Counted from the stretch's first letter, positions 3,417 through 47,067 are shown. The stretch: 64,000 bases of DNA from an uncultured Lachnospiraceae bacterium (GCA_905233905.1 CAJOFN010000001.1:266-64265); one strand, 5' to 3'. Notes: generated by a model not told the origin, from the letters alone. Program-made: numbers and translations.

Positions 3417-3485
3417 TAATTTTACCTATCTAATGAATGTCATCAGGGCTCCTCCCACTTCGTGGGTCCCTCCTCATGACGAAAT

Positions 3486-4688
3486 TTAACCTATTCTTAT
3501 CCTACTTATTATATCACCGTCAGAAAGTCTGCCGCAGGCCTCCTTATAAGCCTTTTCGGTCATGGAAGCCGTAACAACTCCGATCTCACCCGCTATGCCT
3601 AAATCCAATACTGACTCAATCTCAAAACACTCCCTTATCCCGGACTCTGAAAGGGATGTACGGATGAAATTGCGGTAGGACTGCTCATCCGGGTCTGCAA
3701 GGCGGATGGTATCATGGCTCCAGCGAATATCGGAGGCTTTGTCATGCTCCTTTGCCATGCTGACAAGATCCCCGACTACCGCAGATGCCGTAGGAAGACT
3801 GCCTGCCCCGCTCCCGTAGTACATGCTGTCGCCTAACATATTGCCAACAACATATACCGCGTTCATCACACCATGCACCGCGTAAAGAGGATGCTCCTCA
3901 TCTAACAGAAAGGGGGCAACCCTTATTGCGAAAGTGTCCGCCTGCCTCTTGCAGACAGCAAGGAGCTTTACGGCATGGGAAAGCTTTTTGGCGTAGATGA
4001 AATCCTCCGCCGTTATGCCTGTGATACCCTCCACAGGTATGTCCTGATAGTTTACCGTGGCTTCGGCTATAAGGGAAGTAAGTATCGCTATCTTGCGTGT
4101 GGCGTCATGCCCTTCTATGTCTGCGGAAGGATCTGCCTCCGCGTAGCCGTTGGCCTGGGCCTCTTTTAATACCTCATCAAAGCCGCAGCCTTCATTTGCC
4201 ATGTTGGTGAGCATGTAGTTGGTCGTGCCATTGATGATGCCGGTGATCTCGTCTATGCGATCCCCGGTAAGCGCCGTAAGCAGGGTGCGTATTATAGGAA
4301 TACCGCCGCCCACGGAGGCTTCAAACAAGAACTGAACCCCGTTTGCCCTGGCGATCTCCAAAAGCTCGGCTCCCTTGTCTGCCACAAGTGCTTTGTTGGA
4401 GGTGGTAACGTGTTTGCCGTGCTCCAACATCGCCTTTACAAAGGTAAATGCTGGCTCAACGCCTCCCATTGTCTCAACCACCAGATCAACCGAGTCATCC
4501 TCCGCTATCTGATTGTAATCATGTACCACCAGAGGGGCGATGGGATCACCATCAAAATCACGAAGATCAAGAACCTTTGTCAGAGTAAGTCTGCACCCTG
4601 CCCTCTTTTCAATGAGGGCGCTATTGTCAGACAGTATCTTTGCTACTCCTGAGCCTATGGTTCCATACCCCATTATTGCTACGTTCAT
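3486..4688 (-). CDS. hom: homoserine dehydrogenase
   Basis: NAD-binding N-terminus MNVAIMGYGTIGSGV, 400 aa, C-terminal ACT-like region, neighbour of aspartate kinase. Confidence 0.9.
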   Translation of the reverse strand: MNVAIMGYGTIGSGVAKILSDNSALIEKRAGCRLTLTKVLDLRDFDGDPIAPLVVHDYNQIAEDDSVDLVVETMGGVEPAFTFVKAMLEHGKHVTTSNKALVADKGAELLEIARANGVQFLFEASVGGGIPIIRTLLTALTGDRIDEITGIINGTTNYMLTNMANEGCGFDEVLKEAQANGYAEADPSADIEGHDATRKIAILTSLIAEATVNYQDIPVEGITGITAEDFIYAKKLSHAVKLLAVCKRQADTFAIRVAPFLLDEEHPLYAVHGVMNAVYVVGNMLGDSMYYGSGAGSLPTASAVVGDLVSMAKEHDKASDIRWSHDTIRLADPDEQSYRNFIRTSLSESGIRECFEIESVLDLGIAGEIGVVTASMTEKAYKEACGRLSDGDIISRIRIG

Positions 4689-36488: not shown

Positions 36489-37181
36489 CTAAACCTTAAA
36501 TCTGTAGCCGACACCCCATACCGTTTCTATGAACTGGGGTTTGCCGGGATTTGCCTCGATCTTTTCTCTTATCTTTTTGATATGGACTGCCACGGTAGCT
36601 ATATCTCCAACGCCGCTGTCCCATACCTTGCCAAATAATTCCTCTTTGGAAAAAACCTGGTTGGGATGCTCCATCAGAAACAGCAGCAGCTCGTATTCCT
36701 TGGTAGTAAGCATCTTTTCCGTGTCATCCACCCATACACGGTGCATTGCCAGATTGACCCTTAAATTCCTGACTAAAAGCTCATCCGCTCCTTCATCCTG
36801 TGGGATGGTGCTTACAAGCCTCTGGTATCTGGCAAAATGCGCCTTGACCCTTGCCACCAGCTCACCCGGTGAAAAGGGCTTGGTGATGTAGTCATCGGCT
36901 CCGATGCCCAATGCCCGTATCTTGTCTATGTCCTCCTTGCGCGCTGATACCATAAGGATGGGGGCATTGCTTATCTTGCGAAGCTCTCCGCAAAGCTCAA
37001 TACCGTCCATTCCCGGAACCATGATGTCAAGGATGTACATATCAAAATCATGGAGCTTTCCAAGCTCAAGGGCGTCTTTGCCGTTTTTCACTGTGGTAAC
37101 TTCAAAATCAGACAGCTCCAGATAGTCCCTTTCCAACTCTGCGATTGCTTCTTCGTCTTCTACGATCAGTATCCTGCTCAC
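36489..37181 (-). CDS. OmpR-family response regulator
   Basis: REC domain (ILIVEDEE...[14 protein letters not shown]) plus a winged-helix C-terminus ([11 protein letters not shown]). GTG start preceded by AGGAGG. Confidence 0.9.
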
Positions 37182-38349: not shown

Positions 38350-38433
38350 TTAATAAGCAAGGATGGTAAGGACCGCTGTAACAGTCCCTAAAAACAAGGC
38401 TATACAGCCCATTACAAATGATAAATGCTGCAT
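38350..38433 (-). CDS. 27-aa hydrophobic peptide (MQHLSFVMGCIALFLGTVTAVLTILAY)
   Basis: Below the ORF-track cutoff. Strong RBS GAAGGAG-N5-ATG. A single TM-like helix. Last ORF of the Tad-like operon. Confidence 0.4.
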   Translation of the reverse strand: MQHLSFVMGCIALFLGTVTAVLTILAY

Positions 38434-38444
38434 ATGCGCTCCTT

Positions 38445-38594
38445 CTATCCGATAATCTGTGACATAGCCTCTGATAAGGCCTCGGAAAACAATGACGAGC
38501 TGCCAAGGAACAGACAGGCAAAAATCCCTGCAACTGAAATAGCGGAGGCTGCTGCCAGAAACGCCCCTCCGTACTCACGCAAAATATCCTTCAT
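38445..38594 (-). CDS. 49-aa leaderless Flp-like peptide (MKDILREYGGAFLAAASAISVAGIFACLFLG...)
   Basis: Below the ORF-track cutoff. RBS GGGAG-N7-ATG, and the ATG overlaps the upstream stop (ATGA). The N-terminus is paralogous to the 65-aa ORF at 41582..41779. Confidence 0.55.
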   Translation of the reverse strand: MKDILREYGGAFLAAASAISVAGIFACLFLGSSSLFSEALSEAMSQIIG

Positions 38595-38683
38595 ACCAGA
38601 GCTCCCGTCATTATCGCTGCCATGGACAAGGCAAAAGCAAGCTGAATGACCGCAATCCCCAGATCCTCACATATCTCCTTCAT
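38591..38683 (-). CDS. 30-aa leaderless Flp-like peptide (MKEICEDLGIAVIQLAFALSMAAIMTGALV)
   Basis: Below the ORF-track cutoff. Same M-[KQ]-[DE]-I-x-x-[ED]-[YL]-G register as the other two peptides. Overlaps the end of the 114-aa ORF by 17 nt. Confidence 0.4.
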   Translation of the reverse strand: MKEICEDLGIAVIQLAFALSMAAIMTGALV

Positions 38684-39011
38684 TATCCTTCTCGTCCTCC
38701 TGTTCTAAATGAATTTTATCTGTAAAGCGTCCGCTGTTTTCAAAGCCAAACAGTGGCATGCTGTATTTATATGTCAAAACAGCCTCACCCTCAGGATCGA
38801 CAGAAAGCTCAAAGCCTTCCTCTATCGCCCTGTCGCTGTATTCCTCTATCATGTCACCGCTTCCCTCGTTTGCTTCTATCTCATAAAGGGCATCCTCAAA
38901 GAAGCGATCAGCCTGCCTGACCCTGCAGGACGCAGCTATTATCCCCACACCGGCAAAGCTTATGATCGCAAGAAAATACATGCCGATATAGCCCTTGATC
39001 ACAGTATCCAT
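38667..39011 (-). CDS. 114-aa N-terminally anchored protein (possible minor pilin / accessory subunit)
   Basis: One N-terminal TM helix (GMYFLAIISFAGVGIIAA) followed by an acidic soluble domain. Sits inside the Tad-like operon. I recognise no family. Confidence 0.45.
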   Translation of the reverse strand: MDTVIKGYIGMYFLAIISFAGVGIIAASCRVRQADRFFEDALYEIEANEGSGDMIEEYSDRAIEEGFELSVDPEGEAVLTYKYSMPLFGFENSGRFTDKIHLEQEDEKDNEGDM

Positions 39012-39018
39012 ATAATCC

Positions 39019-40356
39019 CTACATCATACCGCTGTTCATATACAGCACAAGAATCAGAGCCATATCCACCAGCATCTTGACCCCTCCGGTAAGCTGCGGC
39101 GCCAGAAACATCGCATACATCCCCGCAAGGGAGTCCTCATTCAAAAGCTTCTGCGATCTGTCATATAATACGCGGTTGCGCCTGATTATATCCGCGATCT
39201 GCATCCCTGCGTCTCCCCCTGATCCCTGGGAGATAGAATAAAGCATCTTCATGGAGGATGATATTTCAGGGATCTGAAACTCCGACAGGAAATTAAGATA
39301 TGGCTCTATCGCCTCAGGATGCTGCCTGATGTCCATGACAAAATCGGCTATTGCCGGCTTTAGTATTTCAGGCGCCATCGGCAATGATCTTTCCATTGCC
39401 ACTGCCACATTTTCCGTCTGAAGCAGCAGCGACAGCTCCATGAGCCATACGGGATACTGTTTTTCTATCTCTCTAACAAGCTTCTTTTTCCAGAAGGCCC
39501 TGCCTGCCATGCAAAAAACATCCTGTCTGTCCCCCGTAAAATACTTTTTGTATAACCCGGCGTAGTGAGAGTCCATGTCATGGTTGCTTTCTATCAGTCC
39601 GACAGTAAGCTTCTTGTCTGTGCGGTAAAGAATGACAAGATCGGCAATAAGCACCCCTACCGTAACCGCCCGGACATATATATTGCCGGAAATGTCTACT
39701 CCCATGCGAAGCGAAAGCTTAAATATCACGCCGCAGAGAAGCAGGGAAGCTATTATGGAAAATATCACGTCCCTGCGCTTTTTCCTCTGCTCCTGCTGCA
39801 GCACATACACTCTGTCAGCAAACATGCGCCTGTACTCTAAAAGCAGCCGAATGGATTCTCTGCAATCACCGCCCACCTGTTCGGTCGTAATTGCAAAATT
39901 ATGTATGGTCTCAACCCCGTCAAAGGGATAGGCCTTTGATATAATATCAAGTGCCCTGCCGCATACATTATCCTCCCTGTAGGTGTGCCAGATGTGATAC
40001 AGTGCCTCTGAAATGACGCTTTTCATCTGCCCCTCTTCAAATATGCTCCCAAGATCCTCTAATGTATCTAAAATCTTTCCCGTCCGTGCAAAGGAATACA
40101 AAAACTGCTCCATATAGACATTGAGATCGGAAAATCTCTTCTGATGATAGCGGTTTTCCGCCGTATTCCTGAGAAAAAGCGGCATAAAGGCTATACCTGT
40201 CACGCAAAGCACCGCCTGGGAAACAGCATCCAGCATGAACAGCTTTCCAAGGAGGATCAGGGACCAAAACATGCAAAGGCAAAGCATGGCACTCTTTTTC
40301 ATTGAAAAAACATATCCATATTTTTTGAGTTCAACCGATAGTGTTTCTGATCTCAT
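39019..40356 (-). CDS. polytopic platform protein, TadB/TadC (T2SS-F)-like, two repeats fused
   Basis: 445 aa. Two cytoplasmic helical segments are each followed by TM helices, the pattern of GspF/TadBC. It lies 21 nt downstream of the ATPase gene. Confidence 0.55.
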   Translation of the reverse strand: MRSETLSVELKKYGYVFSMKKSAMLCLCMFWSLILLGKLFMLDAVSQAVLCVTGIAFMPLFLRNTAENRYHQKRFSDLNVYMEQFLYSFARTGKILDTLEDLGSIFEEGQMKSVISEALYHIWHTYREDNVCGRALDIISKAYPFDGVETIHNFAITTEQVGGDCRESIRLLLEYRRMFADRVYVLQQEQRKKRRDVIFSIIASLLLCGVIFKLSLRMGVDISGNIYVRAVTVGVLIADLVILYRTDKKLTVGLIESNHDMDSHYAGLYKKYFTGDRQDVFCMAGRAFWKKKLVREIEKQYPVWLMELSLLLQTENVAVAMERSLPMAPEILKPAIADFVMDIRQHPEAIEPYLNFLSEFQIPEISSSMKMLYSISQGSGGDAGMQIADIIRRNRVLYDRSQKLLNEDSLAGMYAMFLAPQLTGGVKMLVDMALILVLYMNSGMM

Positions 40357-40377
40357 AACCTCACCTGCTTCCTGTAC

Positions 40378-41547
40378 TCACATGATGCCCCGGAATGTGC
40401 CGATATTGTTACTTTTAAAGGGGATCATTTCAAAATCCTTTGGCTTCTGCTCAGCGCTTCTGACATATAAGGGCCTTTGCGCTGCCTCCCCCATGAATCT
40501 TGAAGCCATAAGCGGATCATTAACCTCCGCCCTTGAAAGCTTTTCTGAAAGGCTTTGGGGCAGGTCTCCTTTTAGCAGCTTTCCTTGATCCAGTATCATG
40601 TGGCATATATTTTTTCCGTCAGTTCTTTCAAAATATGCTATCTGGTCAATAAAACGTATTATGGATCGTCTTCCGTCTTCTCTTAGCATTTCCCGTCTTG
40701 TAATAAGTACCGCTATATCTATAAAGCTATAGATATCATTCTCCATACGGCTCTCATCCCGTTCCTGTCCCGCCATGTTGATCATCCTGTCAGGCAGCTT
40801 TCTCACATCGTCAGTATGAAGGGTGGTGATCCCCTTGACTCCTGTGGAAAAGCCTTCTATGAGCTTGATAACCTCCGTGGAACGGGTTTCTGAAAGCATC
40901 ATCCATTTGGGATTAAGCCGCAGGCAGGTCTTTATGGCCTCTGTATAATCCATCTGAGGGCTGACCTTAAGCTCCACGCAGTCCTTGTCGGGGCCTGTGC
41001 TCCTGTAATGCCATTCCGGAGTATCCTCAATGGTGATGACTCTCTGATCCGCCGGGATGAACCCTGAGAAAAACCTTGCACACTCTGTCTTGCCTGCGCC
41101 CGGTTCGCCGCAGAATACGATATTTGACCCGGATGCCACACAGCCCTTTAACAGCTCTAATACCTCCGGGCTGCAATAGCCGCTCTCTACCATGTTCTCC
41201 TCTGTCATACGGATATAGGGAAGGGATTTGCGGATGCAGATACTCCTTCCTGAGATCGCAACTGACTCATGAACTATGGTTATGCGCAGCCTGTCAGTTT
41301 CGGCTTCAAGCACCGGCTTTTGCTTGTTAAACGGCTTGCTCACGGTGTTTGCCACACGCATGGAAAACTGTTCTACAAAATCGGGGGACAATGAAAGAGA
41401 AGACGGATATCTGAGATTGGAGGTATCCGTAAGCCATATCCGGCTCCCGTTAAAATCGACATCAGTAATATCATCATTCATAACATATTCATACAAGGGG
41501 CCAAAATATGCCTCACTCTCCATAATCTCATTTCTTTTCTGATCCAT
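40378..41547 (-). CDS. type II/IV secretion-family ATPase (CpaF/TadA/VirB11-like)
   Basis: ITDVDFNG...RITIVHESVAISGRSICIRK N-domain, Walker A GEPGAGKTE, RVITIEDTPE Asp box, MLSETR Walker B-like motif and a His-box region TLHTD. Confidence 0.8.
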   Translation of the reverse strand: MDQKRNEIMESEAYFGPLYEYVMNDDITDVDFNGSRIWLTDTSNLRYPSSLSLSPDFVEQFSMRVANTVSKPFNKQKPVLEAETDRLRITIVHESVAISGRSICIRKSLPYIRMTEENMVESGYCSPEVLELLKGCVASGSNIVFCGEPGAGKTECARFFSGFIPADQRVITIEDTPEWHYRSTGPDKDCVELKVSPQMDYTEAIKTCLRLNPKWMMLSETRSTEVIKLIEGFSTGVKGITTLHTDDVRKLPDRMINMAGQERDESRMENDIYSFIDIAVLITRREMLREDGRRSIIRFIDQIAYFERTDGKNICHMILDQGKLLKGDLPQSLSEKLSRAEVNDPLMASRFMGEAAQRPLYVRSAEQKPKDFEMIPFKSNNIGTFRGIM

Positions 41548-41581
41548 AAGCTTATGCTCCTTATACTCGCAGCTATAATAT

Positions 41582-41779
41582 TTAAGGATTAGTCCCTATT
41601 GCTACAAGCCCTGCATTGGTCTGTACTTCGTCAATAAAACCGTCAAGGAGTGCCCTCATGCTCTCCCCAACGTAGCCGCCATCATTGCCCTTGAACAAGA
41701 GTCCTATGATGGTAGCAAGCGACAGTATGGCGATCACTGTAATGAGCGCCGGACCATATTCTTTTATAATATCCTGCAT
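41582..41779 (-). CDS. 65-aa leaderless Flp-like peptide (MQDIIKEYGPALITVIAILSLATIIGLLF...)
   Basis: Strong RBS GAAAGGAG. The EYG motif followed by a hydrophobic helix resembles mature Flp pilins. An in-frame TAA lies 18 nt upstream of the ATG, so no leader is possible. Confidence 0.6.
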   Translation of the reverse strand: MQDIIKEYGPALITVIAILSLATIIGLLFKGNDGGYVGESMRALLDGFIDEVQTNAGLVAIGTNP

Positions 41780-41855
41780 ACATGCTCCTTTCTTTTATGA
41801 AAAAACGATCATCTGTTAACAGTGTGGAAGCTTTGGGCGAAATGCCCGTGAACCC

Positions 41856-41891
41856 CGCCAGCCGCCCGTAAGAGCCCGGGCGAAGCTGGCG
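41856..41891 (-). promoter_or_regulatory. nested GC-rich hairpin in the 5' leader of the Tad-like operon
   Basis: Minus-strand RNA CGCCAGC-uu-CGCCCG-ggcucuua-CGGGCG-GCUGGCG. The downstream CGCCC could pair alternatively with CGGGCG. No U-tract follows. Confidence 0.4.
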
Positions 41892-41923
41892 AATGTGAAC
41901 TATTATCTGATGTCGATGGAAAG

Positions 41924-41952
41924 AGTCTAACAAAACCACCGGCCAAAAGCAA
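41924..41952 (-). promoter_or_regulatory. candidate promoter TTGCTT-N17-TAGACT for the Tad-like operon
   Basis: -35 at 41947-41952 and -10 at 41924-41929, about 145 nt upstream of the first small ORF. Confidence 0.35.
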
Positions 41953-44900: not shown

Positions 44901-45101
44901 GGTCATGCCGGCTATATGGGCGGCAGGAAGCTTTGTTGAGGCTTTGTATATGAGTTCTCTTATTATATCCTCATTCCAACATTCCACATGAAGCTGGACC
45001 AGCACAGAAGAGGCCTTTTTGTATTCCTCAAGCTCCGCTATTTTGTCCAGGTTGTACTCAAATTCAGCTATTGTTTTGGCATCGTATTTCTTCTGGATCA
45101 T
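41964..45101 (-). CDS. soluble hybrid sensor histidine kinase (FIST-like N-terminal sensor, HisKA, HATPase, REC, Hpt)
   Basis: H-box FLSSVSHEIRTPINAVLG, N/G boxes, REC (ILVVDD...FLDQRMPEMDG...KP) and Hpt (KVHALKSSSRIIGA). No TM helix is present. The FIST assignment of residues 1-420 is tentative. Confidence 0.8.
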   Translation of the reverse strand: MIQKKYDAKTIAEFEYNLDKIAELEEYKKASSVLVQLHVECWNEDIIRELIYKASTKLPAAHIAGMTNVNRDVFRMGEMRDRDEHILYSVSIELLCMESSYMQALVFDMASFSEYKAGGFTGQALNEMENVKGVELFVADDHVQVEDFLAMAAAIHDDIPFFGAKAAVFRTITGEGKCFAFYDDVILSKGIVVLVFTGEELEIRAGYCFGWTPIGKKMTITKMENELCVREIDNQRASHVYKKYLGLNPEQIVSENVCEFPLCVKRGERILARIAFRAEDDPNSMIFSAPMFEGDVLQLSYGNPDIIFADSYADAMEVRRFAPQALKLISCMNRSIVLNKGVKVEYGFYAPAAPEMAIIHGSSEILFDKDGGGELASSLVSVALREGPVPEDTPKIQTVDFGKCDYHSEVIPIVHRMTHFMEAVTRDLADAVEEANAANEAKTQFLSSVSHEIRTPINAVLGLDEMILREASEPEIRRYAFDIQNSGRTLLSLINDLLDSSRIASGKIEIIPVEYELSSVLNDLVNMTAVRAEEKGLTLKLEVDPNIPHSLKGDDARIRQCALNILTNAVKYTNTGSVTLKLSAEKTSSDTINLSFAVTDTGIGIKKEDISRLFVAYDRIEEERNRGIEGTGLGINIVTSLLSLMDSKLEVESEYGKGSTFSFVISQKVEDWEPLGDFTEMYKKSMNERQNYHESFRAPDARILVVDDTRVNLTVIRGLLKATQIKIDTAESGKEALVLVRKNVYDMIFLDQRMPEMDGIETLRRMKHDYENKNHDTPVIMLTANAVAGAREMFLEEGFDDYLTKPINGRKLEAAIYERLPESKRHKPETEEATPSGEAVVYDSDFLKSLSEIDGISVKEGLANCMNEEILRSTVNDFVVSAKTGPGELLGFLEDGDISNYTIKVHALKSSSRIIGADELSEQAKQLEKWGDEGNIPEIKEHNPKLLSDYRTLADALKAALDGPAEDEEANGQDAGDLLPKDQFLSALGNIKELIEVFDFDGAFDIVGMLKGYRLLKEDKGLLETLSDNISRLKRDEILNLLNNC

Positions 45102-46366
45102 ATCAGTCCCCCTGCCATGTTGCTTTGTATGTAAGCCTTAATCCAGTTTAAGCTTTCAGAATAAGTGCTTCCGGTTCTTTTAGATAATTCAACCACGCTG
45201 TCATATTCCGGCTCATAGCGTCTGCTTCCGTCAGGAAGGGTTATTATTTTAACGTCAACCTTTCCCCTTGGAGTCTCCCATGTCTCCCCGGTTCTTTTGA
45301 GCTTTGAACGCTTAAGCTTCATCCTGCGGATGCCTATGGTGGTGGTCTCTGTGAATATGAGCTCTTCAAGCTTTTCTCTGTGGCCGTCATCACAGATTAC
45401 CACAAGCTCAACTCCGGGCCGGTTCTTTTTCATGAAGGTAGGAGTATAATGTACCTCCAGGGCGCCGTTCTCATAGAGGCAGCTCATTACATAGCCTAAT
45501 CTTTCCCCTGTGGAATCATCTATGTCTGTCTCCAGCCTCCAGATCTCATCCCCCTGTGTATCAGCAGCTTCTATCTCATAGAGCCTTACGATGCTTGCCC
45601 TCTCATACTCACGCTTGCCGGCGCCTGTGCCTGACCTTATTACGCGGTATGTATCCGGAAGCTTTTCTTCTTTCCTGAAGGCTGCCACCGCAGCAGCTCC
45701 CGTGGGAGTAACAAACTCCCCATCCACGCCTATTCTCTTAAGAGCTATGCCGTAGGCTTTGATAATATTTGCTACAGCCGGAACCGGAATGGGCATTATG
45801 CCGTGGGCGCAGCGTATTGTCCCCTGTCCCTCGCAAAGATACGGCACTATAAGGCTTTCTATTCCAAGATCATCCGCGCATACAGCTATGGCTACGATAT
45901 CCACAATGGAATCCACGGCACCGACCTCATGGAAGTGTACCTCGTCTATAGTTGTGCCATGAGCTAAAGCTTCTGCCTCTCCTAAAACCCTGAATATCCT
46001 TTTGGCAAGTATCCTCGCCTCATCAGACATTGTGCCCGCATCTATGATGTCAAATATCTCTCCTAAATGTCTGTGACCATGATGATGGTGGTGGTGATGA
46101 CCAATTTCATCGCCGTGACTGCCATGAAGGTATTCCATGTCATGGTCATGGTTGTCATGCTCTTCATCAAGGACTACATCAAAGTCACAGGCATCTATGC
46201 CGGCCTTCTTTACCCGGTTTATGGTAACGAAATAGCCTTCCAGAGGAAGGCTTTTAAGCACAGAAATAAGCTTATTCTCGTCAGCACCCAGATCCAGCAT
46301 TGCTCCCACGAGCATGTCTCCGGCTACTCCTGCTTCACATTCAAGAAAAAAACGACCTGTCGTCAT
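45098..46366 (-). CDS. larC: LarC-family nickel insertion protein (DUF111)
   Basis: N-terminal ECEAGVAGDMLVGAMLDLGAD, a His-rich stretch GHHHHHHHGH, 422 aa, downstream of larB. Confidence 0.8.
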   Translation of the reverse strand: MTTGRFFLECEAGVAGDMLVGAMLDLGADENKLISVLKSLPLEGYFVTINRVKKAGIDACDFDVVLDEEHDNHDHDMEYLHGSHGDEIGHHHHHHHGHRHLGEIFDIIDAGTMSDEARILAKRIFRVLGEAEALAHGTTIDEVHFHEVGAVDSIVDIVAIAVCADDLGIESLIVPYLCEGQGTIRCAHGIMPIPVPAVANIIKAYGIALKRIGVDGEFVTPTGAAAVAAFRKEEKLPDTYRVIRSGTGAGKREYERASIVRLYEIEAADTQGDEIWRLETDIDDSTGERLGYVMSCLYENGALEVHYTPTFMKKNRPGVELVVICDDGHREKLEELIFTETTTIGIRRMKLKRSKLKRTGETWETPRGKVDVKIITLPDGSRRYEPEYDSVVELSKRTGSTYSESLNWIKAYIQSNMAGGLI

Positions 46367-47067
46367 AGGCTCTGCTCCCCCTCTACAACTGTTCCGTTAA
46401 CAGCCAGCCTGTTTATTTGAGTAGCAATGTATCCGGCTCCGTAACCATTGTCAATATTTACGACCGACACTCCGTTGGCACAGGAATTGAGCATGGTAAG
46501 GAGCGCGGAAACGCCGTTAAAGCTGGCTCCGTAGCCAACGGACGTGGGAACGGCAACCACAGGAACCGGAACAAGACCGCCAATAACACTGGCAAGAGCT
46601 CCTTCCATCCCTGCTACGGCTATGACGCAGTTGGATGAGCTTATCTCCTCCTGCTGATCAAGAAGCCTGTGAAGACCGCTTACTCCCACATCATAATATC
46701 TCTTAACATTAGTTCCAAAAAATTCCGCTGTCTGGGCGGCTTCCTCTGCCACACCTATATCTGCGGTTCCTGCCGTACATACCGCCACAGAACCGATCCT
46801 TGCCTTGTCCGGTCTTTCGTATTTCAGGATACGCGAAACCGGATCATAATCTATATCAGGTATTATGGCCTTTGCCAGCTCGTATTGCTCCGGCGTCGCC
46901 CTTGTTCCAAGGACTTCTCCGTATTCCGCGTAAAGTCTTTTAAATATCTGTGTCAGGTGTTCGTCCGCCTTACCCTGACAGAATACTACCTCAGCAAAAC
47001 CTGTACGGCTCTTACGACCTGTGTCCAGCTTGGCAAAGCCCATGTCGGCATATTGTTTATTTTTCAT
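46363..47067 (-). CDS. larB: LarB-family (PurE-like) nickel-pincer cofactor biosynthesis protein
   Basis: AVAGMEGALASVIGGLVPVPVVAVPTSVGYG block typical of the PurE/LarB fold, 234 aa. Confidence 0.75.
   Translation of the reverse strand: MKNKQYADMGFAKLDTGRKSRTGFAEVVFCQGKADEHLTQIFKRLYAEYGEVLGTRATPEQYELAKAIIPDIDYDPVSRILKYERPDKARIGSVAVCTAGTADIGVAEEAAQTAEFFGTNVKRYYDVGVSGLHRLLDQQEEISSSNCVIAVAGMEGALASVIGGLVPVPVVAVPTSVGYGASFNGVSALLTMLNSCANGVSVVNIDNGYGAGYIATQINRLAVNGTVVEGEQSL

Follow-up and report, generated by a model that had tools for sequence, protein, structure and literature searches.

A divergent type IV filament-like operon of Lachnospiraceae with a non-canonical N-terminal module on its small subunits

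This study focused on a compact operon in a 64,000-nucleotide stretch of DNA from an uncultured Lachnospiraceae bacterium (GCA_905233905.1, CAJOFN010000001.1:266-64265), referred to here as the window. The operon spans positions 41779-38350 on the minus strand and consists of seven tightly packed open reading frames (ORFs), all of which were found where an original prediction, made from the sequence alone, had placed them. That prediction saw a minimal Tad/Flp-like gene set, with an ATPase, a membrane platform and tiny pilin-like peptides that start without a leader and have no prepilin peptidase beside them. The locus probably represents a branch of the type IV filaments (T4F) that is divergent and undescribed, is common in rumen and gut Lachnospiraceae and has a non-canonical N-terminus on its subunits. 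Literature searches found no published description of leaderless pilins or of a Lachnospiraceae type IV filament of this kind, in agreement with the earlier statement that no characterised system could be matched. The genes, in order of transcription, are as follows (aa, amino acids).

41779-41582, minus strand: major pilin-like subunit, 65 aa (MQDIIKEYGPALITVIAIL...), an ORF with a ribosome-binding site
41547-40378, minus strand: CpaF/VirB11-like ATPase, 389 aa, FCGEPGAGKTECARF, recognised by Pfam T2SSE
40356-39019, minus strand: putative platform protein, unsplit and two-domain, 445 aa, assigned from a structural model and distant relatives
39011-38667, minus strand: N-terminally anchored, minor pilin-like protein, 114 aa, family F2, assigned from its position and N-terminal pattern
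38683-38591, minus strand: pilin-like peptide, 30 aa (MKEICEDLGIAVIQLAFALSMAAIMTGALV), in the slot of about 33-35 aa, with orthologues in the same position
38594-38445, minus strand: pilin-like peptide, 49 aa (MKDILREYGGAFLAAASAI...), in the slot of about 41-50 aa, with orthologues in the same position
38433-38350, minus strand: doubtful ORF, 27 aa (MQHLSFVMGCIALFLG...), without the motif

The first nine residues of three of the window's peptides are MQDIIKEYG, MKEICEDLG and MKDILREYG; a hydrophobic stretch comes next in all three, and the common module, M-[QK]-[DE]-(I/L/V)-(I/L/M/F/V)-x-E-[YF]-G, begins at the initiator methionine. The nearest upstream in-frame stops lie 5, 7 and 24 codons away, with no ATG, GTG or TTG between stop and start; the measured gaps of 15, 21 and 72 nt differ only in the first from those given earlier (18, 21 and 72 nt). 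The module was then sought in 115 related loci (1.53 Mb), which were gathered by looking up exact proteins and by scanning genomes and metagenomes, the metagenome scan with the narrower alignment A3 in place of A4, which was too divergent. With a relaxed pattern and a hydrophobicity filter, the operon strand yielded 347 motif ORFs and the opposite one 2, so the shared N-terminal register is real and far beyond chance, as had been proposed. No alternative start precedes the upstream in-frame stop in 262 of the 347, the median distance to that stop being 9 codons. The ratio of non-synonymous to synonymous substitution rates (dN/dS) was 0.18 for the 65-aa peptide (against locus L035) and 0.27 for the 30-aa peptide (against its L001 orthologue). 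Motif ORFs, upstream stops and dN/dS together mean that these are real, conserved genes.

A stricter pattern, applied to the first 29 loci, placed the motif ORFs in four conserved slots of the operon. The first is a protein of 54-79 aa upstream of the ATPase gene. The second is a peptide of about 33-35 aa that follows a gene for a protein of about 110 aa, and orthologues of 32-36 aa occupy the equivalent position in most loci. The third, also present in most loci, is a peptide of about 41-50 aa after the second (for example, MKEIVEEYGAAVLAAVGS... in L001), and the fourth is a protein of about 150-180 aa with the same N-terminal module. The 30- and 49-aa ORFs of the window are therefore conserved members of slots two and three, but the seventh ORF, of 27 aa, is doubtful: it lacks the motif and was absent from the other locus groups in the motif scan and the group maps. 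It shows a weak resemblance to the N-termini of family F3 (such as MRYITFGLCCILL) and is possibly a remnant of the N-terminus of a lost F3 gene of about 210 aa, or else spurious.

The exact 65-aa protein was recorded on 13 contigs, and its 23 relatives of 58-70 aa all begin with MQDIIKEYGPALITV and have variable C-termini. The first 15-16 residues of the major subunit are invariant and the remainder varies, a pattern that is also seen in pilins. The peptide consists of the conserved N-terminal module, a hydrophobic helix of about 21 residues, a Gly-rich turn and a variable, amphipathic C-terminal helix; an AlphaFold2 (AF2) model gave a helix at residues 2-30, the Gly-rich turn and a second helix at 36-56, with a mean predicted local distance difference test score (pLDDT) of 80. 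Searches with this model by Foldseek gave no matches. One member of the peptide family matched DUF4244 (E 0.075), which was rejected as too weak, and the only PDB match of the peptide profile, a transmembrane helix of SecG, was rejected as a compositional look-alike.

The 114-aa protein had been described earlier as anchored, which stands, but its N-terminus also carries a variant of the module that had been overlooked. The family pattern, M-[DE]-[ST]-[VI]-[IF]-K-[GSAT]-[FY]-x-G (MDTVIKGYIG... in the window), follows the motif register with the Glu swapped for a small residue. A gene of this family follows the platform gene in 83 of the 115 loci; the window's protein has no Pfam match and a dN/dS of 0.14 against its nearest relative. 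The complete set would thus be one major and four minor subunits, one of the minor ones without Glu, and by analogy it parallels the minor-pilin sets of type IV pili (T4P) and type II secretion systems (T2SS). The Glu-less member can be compared with GspK-type subunits.

The ATPase, with the Walker A motif GEPGAGKTE, matched Pfam T2SSE (PF00437) at 64.4 bits (cut-off 24.9, E 1e-17). Its best PDB matches were CpaF (8rkd, 8.5e-23, 84 bits) and then HP0525 VirB11 (3.8e-19, 72 bits), followed by archaeal GspE and FlaI, so that it is nearest to CpaF and VirB11. Among NCBIfam models the best were VirB11 (2e-30; 105.7 bits against a cut-off of 250) and a conjugation-associated TadA type (1e-24), then TrbB and FlaI, all far under their cut-offs, and the ComGA, PilT, GspE and PilB models scored far below VirB11, TadA and FlaI. 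By these match scores the protein appears to lie on the CpaF/VirB11/archaeal side of the T2SSE family, with no clear fit to any named group. It has 1846 relatives, of which all those with a named source are from Lachnospiraceae and are labelled 'CpaF/VirB11 family' or 'TadA'. Its dN/dS was 0.08 between the window and the nearest relative.

In one metagenome scaffold with an identical operon (L032), the ATPase was called as fragments around positions 3479-3569. The scaffold differs from the window over about 86-89 nt only, and a pseudogene was rejected as the explanation, this difference in a scaffolded contig being taken as an assembly gap.

The 445-aa protein had no direct match in Pfam or NCBIfam and no sequence match in PDB, profile search included. 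An AF2 model built with 32 homologues (pLDDT 83) gave as its top Foldseek match 3jc8_Ca, a chain of a type IVa pilus (T4aP) machine model (probability 0.99) that is presumably PilC, and the cytoplasmic domain of EpsF was matched with probabilities of 0.92-0.98 (for 2vmb, 0.98, with a TM-score of 0.69 and 3.3 A). A profile search recovered 959 platform clusters (50% identity). Pfam T2SSF (PF00482) was matched by 7 of 34 distant relatives, the best at 1.5e-5. The predicted layout is two transmembrane helices, a cytoplasmic helical domain, a further two transmembrane helices, a second helical domain and a fifth transmembrane helix; an internal repeat was only hinted at (E 0.079). In 113 of the 115 loci, clustering gave one gene for the platform, of about 445 aa. 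Because of the matches to the modelled structure and of the distant relatives that match T2SSF, the protein is identified, at the level of a model, as a divergent, unsplit, two-domain platform of the PilC/GspF type. It had been read as a fusion of TadB and TadC, of which the unsplit two-domain platform is borne out but a direct family match is not. It resembles archaeal platforms and the inferred ancestor of TadB and TadC more than the split bacterial pair. Seven platform homologues (P0283, P0285, P0286, P0312, P0314, P0363 and P0383) are longer (610-890 aa), through 120-320 additional residues at the N-terminus or additional sequence at the C-terminus, and no T2SSE domain was found in them by Pfam.

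The wider family shows what a complete operon looks like. Clustering of all proteins called in the loci gave 51 platform groups, in which the usual order is peptide, ATPase, platform, and proteins of about 110, 34, 47, 170 and 210 aa, often followed by a protein of 930-1960 aa. This order, and with it the combination of ATPase, platform and motif-bearing peptide, is kept across the 51 groups, plasmid-like contexts included. The protein of about 170 aa (150-180 aa) is the fourth module-bearing subunit and gives a weak Ig-like signal, and that of about 210 aa (200-220 aa) has an N-terminal anchor, MK[HQ]-(I/V/L)-(I/V/M)-F-G... The largest protein (families f14/f15; L012, L047, L016, L023 and others) follows the complete operon in many groups and is absent from many others and from the window; the only one inspected, from L012 (12959-18475), starts with a Sec-type signal. 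These large proteins could be a cargo or an adhesin of the system; their sole Pfam match is a sub-threshold one to CBM_4_9 (E 6e-4). The genome records that carry a name are all Lachnospiraceae, mostly rumen metagenome-assembled genomes and isolates, among them Ca. Weimeria bifida and isolates C10, AC2012 and C7, and the metagenome loci come from rumen and human-gut contigs. Most loci are flanked by housekeeping genes (butyrate synthesis, Mrp, cyclophilin, ProS).

The relationship to known filament systems was explored by comparing components. The system is most reminiscent of Tad/Flp pili in its single ATPase, whose closest solved relative is CpaF, in its very small major subunit (58-79 aa) with E-Y-G right before the hydrophobic helix and a predicted helix-turn-helix, and in its several subunit paralogues with a shared N-terminal motif. 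The mature PilA of Caulobacter reads ATAIEYGLIV... (checked in PDB 8u1k), and in an alternative register residues 3-9 of the module correspond to positions +1 to +7 in mature Flp (xxxxEYG). However, there is one 445-aa platform in place of split TadB and TadC; no Gly-ended leader precedes x4-E-Y, as translation begins two residues before the +1 equivalent; and the G/XXXXEY site of TadV is absent, with nothing before Met1 but in-frame stops upstream. TadV, TadZ/CpaE, TadE/F (PF07811), RcpC and TadG are all missing. No Pfam or NCBIfam matches to TadZ/CpaE, TadE/F or TadV were found in the operon proteins or their relatives, and none of these is linked in the 115 loci, so the earlier account of what the operon lacks is extended to its relatives. 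Lacking a split platform, a G/XXXXEY prepilin and all of TadV, TadZ, TadE and TadF, the system is not in the Tad family as defined.

Other systems share some of these features. Clostridial tad-like loci without recognisable prepilins were described by Imam et al. 2011 (PMC3244431), for example in C. kluyveri, C. bolteae and Clostridium sp. L2-50; they likewise have no standard prepilin motif, but carry tadV, tadZ and rcpC homologues, none of which is present here, where there is also a clear and distinct subunit motif. Archaeal T4P (Epd/Aap/Ups type) and archaella (FlaI/FlaJ) have an unsplit two-domain platform with N-terminal transmembrane helices, their FlaI and GspE are also matched by the ATPase, and their short N-terminal signals are without Glu at +5, as would be the case here if Gly9 were position -1. 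Tad is held to derive from such archaeal systems (Denise et al., PMC6668835). The differences are that position -2 would be Tyr, that the segment is acidic and that no peptidase is linked, whereas archaeal signals have Lys or Arg at -2 and are cut by FlaK/PibD/EppA, a core component, according to a 2026 archaeal survey (bioRxiv 10.64898/2026.04.22.720090). The Com pilus (ComGA, ComGB, ComGC-GG, ComC) is likewise a minimal monoderm T4F, with one ATPase, one platform and five pilins in one operon and a peptidase that is often unlinked; but the ComGA, PilB and GspE models score far lower on this ATPase than VirB11, TadA and FlaI, the pilins of Com systems have globular domains behind a canonical KG/FTLxE signal, and no DNA-uptake genes are linked here.

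By analogy with these families, a hexameric CpaF/VirB11-like ATPase would power the unsplit PilC/GspF-type membrane platform, which would pull the small single-helix subunits out of the bilayer and stack them into a thin filament. The filament would consist mostly of the major subunit (58-79 aa, and 65 aa here), its assembly primed by the minor subunits: the Glu-less one of about 110 aa, those of about 34 and 47 aa and, in complete loci, the one of about 170 aa with its putative Ig-like domain. In complete loci the filament would probably present, or work with, the large secreted protein. If the module is retained, Glu7-Tyr8 may take the role of Glu5-Tyr6 of Flp, and no prepilin peptidase of the A24 family would be needed.

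Reviews give four parts as the universal core of type IV filaments, namely a pilin, a prepilin peptidase, an ATPase and a platform (PMC10191384 and the 2026 archaeal survey, bioRxiv 10.64898/2026.04.22.720090). No A24 peptidase was found in the 64-kb window when ORFs with at least three predicted transmembrane helices were scanned individually against Pfam; the multi-helix ORFs were AzlC, AzlD, DUF4956, FtsX and MatE. Nor was one found in the 115 loci among ORFs of 120-330 aa with at least four transmembrane helices, which formed ten clusters: six were CPBP/Rce1-like, CbiQ, ECF-S (riboflavin type), BPD_transp, BrkB and NMN-transporter, one more was an ECF transporter S component, and three had no Pfam match at all. 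Both searches covered the window and the loci, not whole genomes.

In two loci of a human-gut clade with about 35% platform identity (L094, 7287-8174, and L115), the major peptide gene is immediately preceded, in the same orientation, by the gene of a CPBP/Rce1-like intramembrane protease (PF02517, 2.4e-20). The protease could act as a processing enzyme in this lineage, or its position could be coincidental; as a general processing enzyme it was rejected, being present in only 2 of the 51 platform groups and probably in one human-gut lineage.

Several features of the module itself argue against cleavage after Gly9. The net charge of residues 2-8 averages -0.78, with 214 of 227 distinct sequences at 0 or below. 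Conservation among paralogues lies within residues 1-9, with none after, and Gly9 is followed by Pro in the major subunit, by Glu in the small ones and by Arg, Gly or Lys in the class of about 170 aa. If Gly9 were position -1, there would be no Glu at +5, and in the 114-aa family the small residue (G/S/A/T) is at position 7 and not at position 9. Together with the absence of an A24 gene, the acidic charge, the conservation before Gly and the Pro, Glu or Arg after it would favour a module that is kept on the mature subunit and not cut by an A24 enzyme. As judged from sequence, this is an evenly balanced proposition, and the least certain step of the argument. A more specific form of it is offered tentatively: a subtype of T4P in which pilins are made near-mature, with translation from two residues before the Flp-equivalent +1, and are assembled without a prepilin peptidase.

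The alternative that best survives is an ordinary class III signal, in which the nine residues are a leader cut after Gly9 by an unlinked A24 peptidase of the PilD/TadV type, so that the filament would be divergent but mechanistically standard. A class III signal is defined by a hydrophilic leader ending in Gly or Ala, followed by 20-25 hydrophobic residues, often with Glu5 (PMC10191384), and M-x-[DE]-I-x-x-E-Y-G with the roughly 21 hydrophobic residues directly after it fits that pattern formally, as a 9-residue leader ending in Gly. The description of the peptides as having no leader was therefore overstated. The usual leader of T4aP and archaeal pilins is 6-12 residues long. A peptidase elsewhere in the genome is possible by analogy: MSH loci are always without their own, and peptidases are shared between systems (PMC6668835), so the absence of one from a locus does not show independence. 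Against this, the putative leader is acidic or neutral and not basic, the mature protein would start with Pro in the case of the major subunit and with Glu, Arg or Lys in that of many minor ones, and all of the conservation among paralogues would sit in the discarded leader. The 114-aa family also fits poorly, lacking the small residue at 9, and no A24 gene occurs in the 115 loci, plasmid-like ones included. Cleavage in trans is accordingly held to be somewhat unlikely, and a lesser remainder is left for some other form of processing.

Several observations weigh against a leaderless type IV filament at this locus. Besides the formal fit to a class III signal and the possibility of an unlinked peptidase, no platform or subunit of the window directly matches a Pfam or NCBIfam model, and homology between the peptides and Flp is not demonstrable: none of them matched Flp_Fap (PF04964) even at E 10, and hhalign against mature Caulobacter PilA aligned only the EYG columns, with a probability of 4.5%, so that the resemblance noted in the original prediction does not amount to homology. 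The frequency of Gly at position 9 is not independent evidence, as the regular expression of the large survey fixed that position to G/A/S. The filament itself is predicted from sequence, and the window's copy may not be functional, having lost three genes that are normally present.

This last point deserves attention. Locus L006 matches the flanks of the window on both sides, with the FIST kinase upstream and a kinase, a regulator and ProS downstream; its downstream kinase gene has 68% nucleotide identity to that of the window, and the orthologous kinase/regulator pair follows F3. It retains genes of 157 aa (F4) and 213 aa (F3), whose place in the window is occupied by the 27-aa ORF. No DNA trace of lost genes was found by blastn between the 49-aa gene and the kinase gene. 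The absence from the window of the subunit of about 170 aa, the anchored protein of about 210 aa and the large secreted protein is a secondary, lineage-specific loss. Because the norm in the 51 groups is longer and the syntenic L006 keeps two further genes, the 'minimal' or stripped-down state is derived, and is not the design of the system.

It follows that the window's copy could be an inactive remnant, as the three missing genes and the 27-aa ORF, as possible debris, would suggest. This is unlikely. The six remaining genes are intact and under purifying selection (dN/dS 0.08-0.27, and 0.08-0.18 against the nearest relative), and contigs from other, independent samples carry the operon of this lineage at 99.97% nucleotide identity with the six genes intact. 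The gene of about 210 aa is also absent from L013 and L024, and that of about 170 aa from a few other group maps.

It is rather improbable that the system makes no surface filament at all and is a short, membrane-embedded, T2SS-like pseudopilus or export device for the large secreted protein or for peptides. The very small subunits, the several minor subunits and the protein of 930-1960 aa behind the operon in many groups, with the Sec-type signal of the L012 example, would suit such a device, and T2SS and Com systems also have several minor subunits. However, many groups and the window are without the large protein, in monoderms there is no outer membrane to be crossed, and nothing in the data separates a short filament from a long one. 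The weakest alternative places the ATPase with the conjugative VirB11/TrbB enzymes of type IV secretion systems (T4SS), on a mobile element, and is very improbable. In its favour, VirB11 is the best NCBIfam match, though far short of its cut-off, and some distant relatives lie beside plasmid partition genes or serine recombinases. Against it, the partner is a GspF/PilC-type platform, which T4SS are without, CpaF is the closest solved relative, most loci sit among housekeeping genes, and no VirB4, VirD4/coupling protein, relaxase or channel genes were found among the genes called on either side of the operon in L001-L004, L030 and L031 or among the matches listed for the window ORFs. The locus is not a conjugative T4SS.

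If a divergent type IV filament with a retained N-terminal module is the right reading, its assembly without a peptidase would break with an enzyme regarded as a universal core component. Pilin-like subunits that start at Met-x-Asp-Ile-x-x-Glu-Tyr-Gly, with no linked peptidase, offer a direct test of whether leader cleavage is obligatory and of what the leader is for. Apart from the ATPase, no scanned operon protein has a significant Pfam or NCBIfam match, and profile-based surveys (MacSyFinder/TXSScan) would probably miss the system, which has 959 platform clusters and is carried by Lachnospiraceae that are abundant in the rumen and the human gut. In butyrate-producing commensals it may serve adhesion or colonisation as an organelle that has gone unrecognised, coupled in complete loci to very large secreted proteins. 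As the window's copy is truncated, the complete loci L006, L012 and L047 are better experimental entry points.

Some distant loci have unusual surroundings. In L031 (2335-9008), and also in L087 and L091, a divergent operon adjoins ParA, an actin-like (ALP) partition protein, DUF3854 and a reverse transcriptase, and a GGDEF protein and an HD-domain protein are encoded immediately upstream of the ATPase, which suggests plasmid carriage and possibly control by cyclic di-GMP. In L031, the region upstream of the ATPase gave no gene for a major-type peptide. Distant versions of the cluster thus lie in plasmid-like contexts, and the cluster is therefore mobile at long range. In loci of the Ca. Weimeria type (L003, 1-6641, and L020), the operon is directly preceded by phage-type genes (a holin and an amidase/CW_7 endolysin) and by two large serine recombinases, which looks like the boundary of a prophage or integrative element. 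A MinD-like neighbour in some loci lies outside the operon and by eye resembles the Mrp/ApbC type, with a CPxC motif.

Within the window's operon, starts are preceded by Shine-Dalgarno-like sequences, and the genes of the 114- and 30-aa proteins overlap by 17 nt and those of the 30- and 49-aa peptides by 4 nt (ATGA), which suggests translational coupling. No riboswitch from Rfam was found, and promoter and terminator scans gave results no better than shuffles. The operon is bracketed by signalling genes, much as the original prediction had described.

45101-41964, minus strand: FIST-HisKA-HATPase-REC-Hpt hybrid histidine kinase, directly upstream of the operon, recognised by Pfam
38280-37108, minus strand: HAMP histidine kinase, directly downstream of the operon, recognised by Pfam
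37181-36489, minus strand: OmpR-type response regulator, downstream of the operon, recognised by Pfam

According to the maps of the 51 platform groups, the FIST hybrid kinase is also a neighbour in L001, L006, L032 and L035 but not in other groups, so that upstream kinase synteny is limited to the closest relatives of the window locus. The ORF of the downstream histidine kinase runs 74 nt into that of the response regulator (37108-37181), which has a GTG as its start, and the true start of the regulator may lie further downstream. Two genes lie upstream of the hybrid kinase (45098-47067), one of the Ni_insertion (LarC-like) type, whose 422-aa product has a His-rich stretch, and one of the AIRC (LarB-like) type, and this neighbourhood, related to the lactate-racemase cofactor, is common to the window, L001 and L006.

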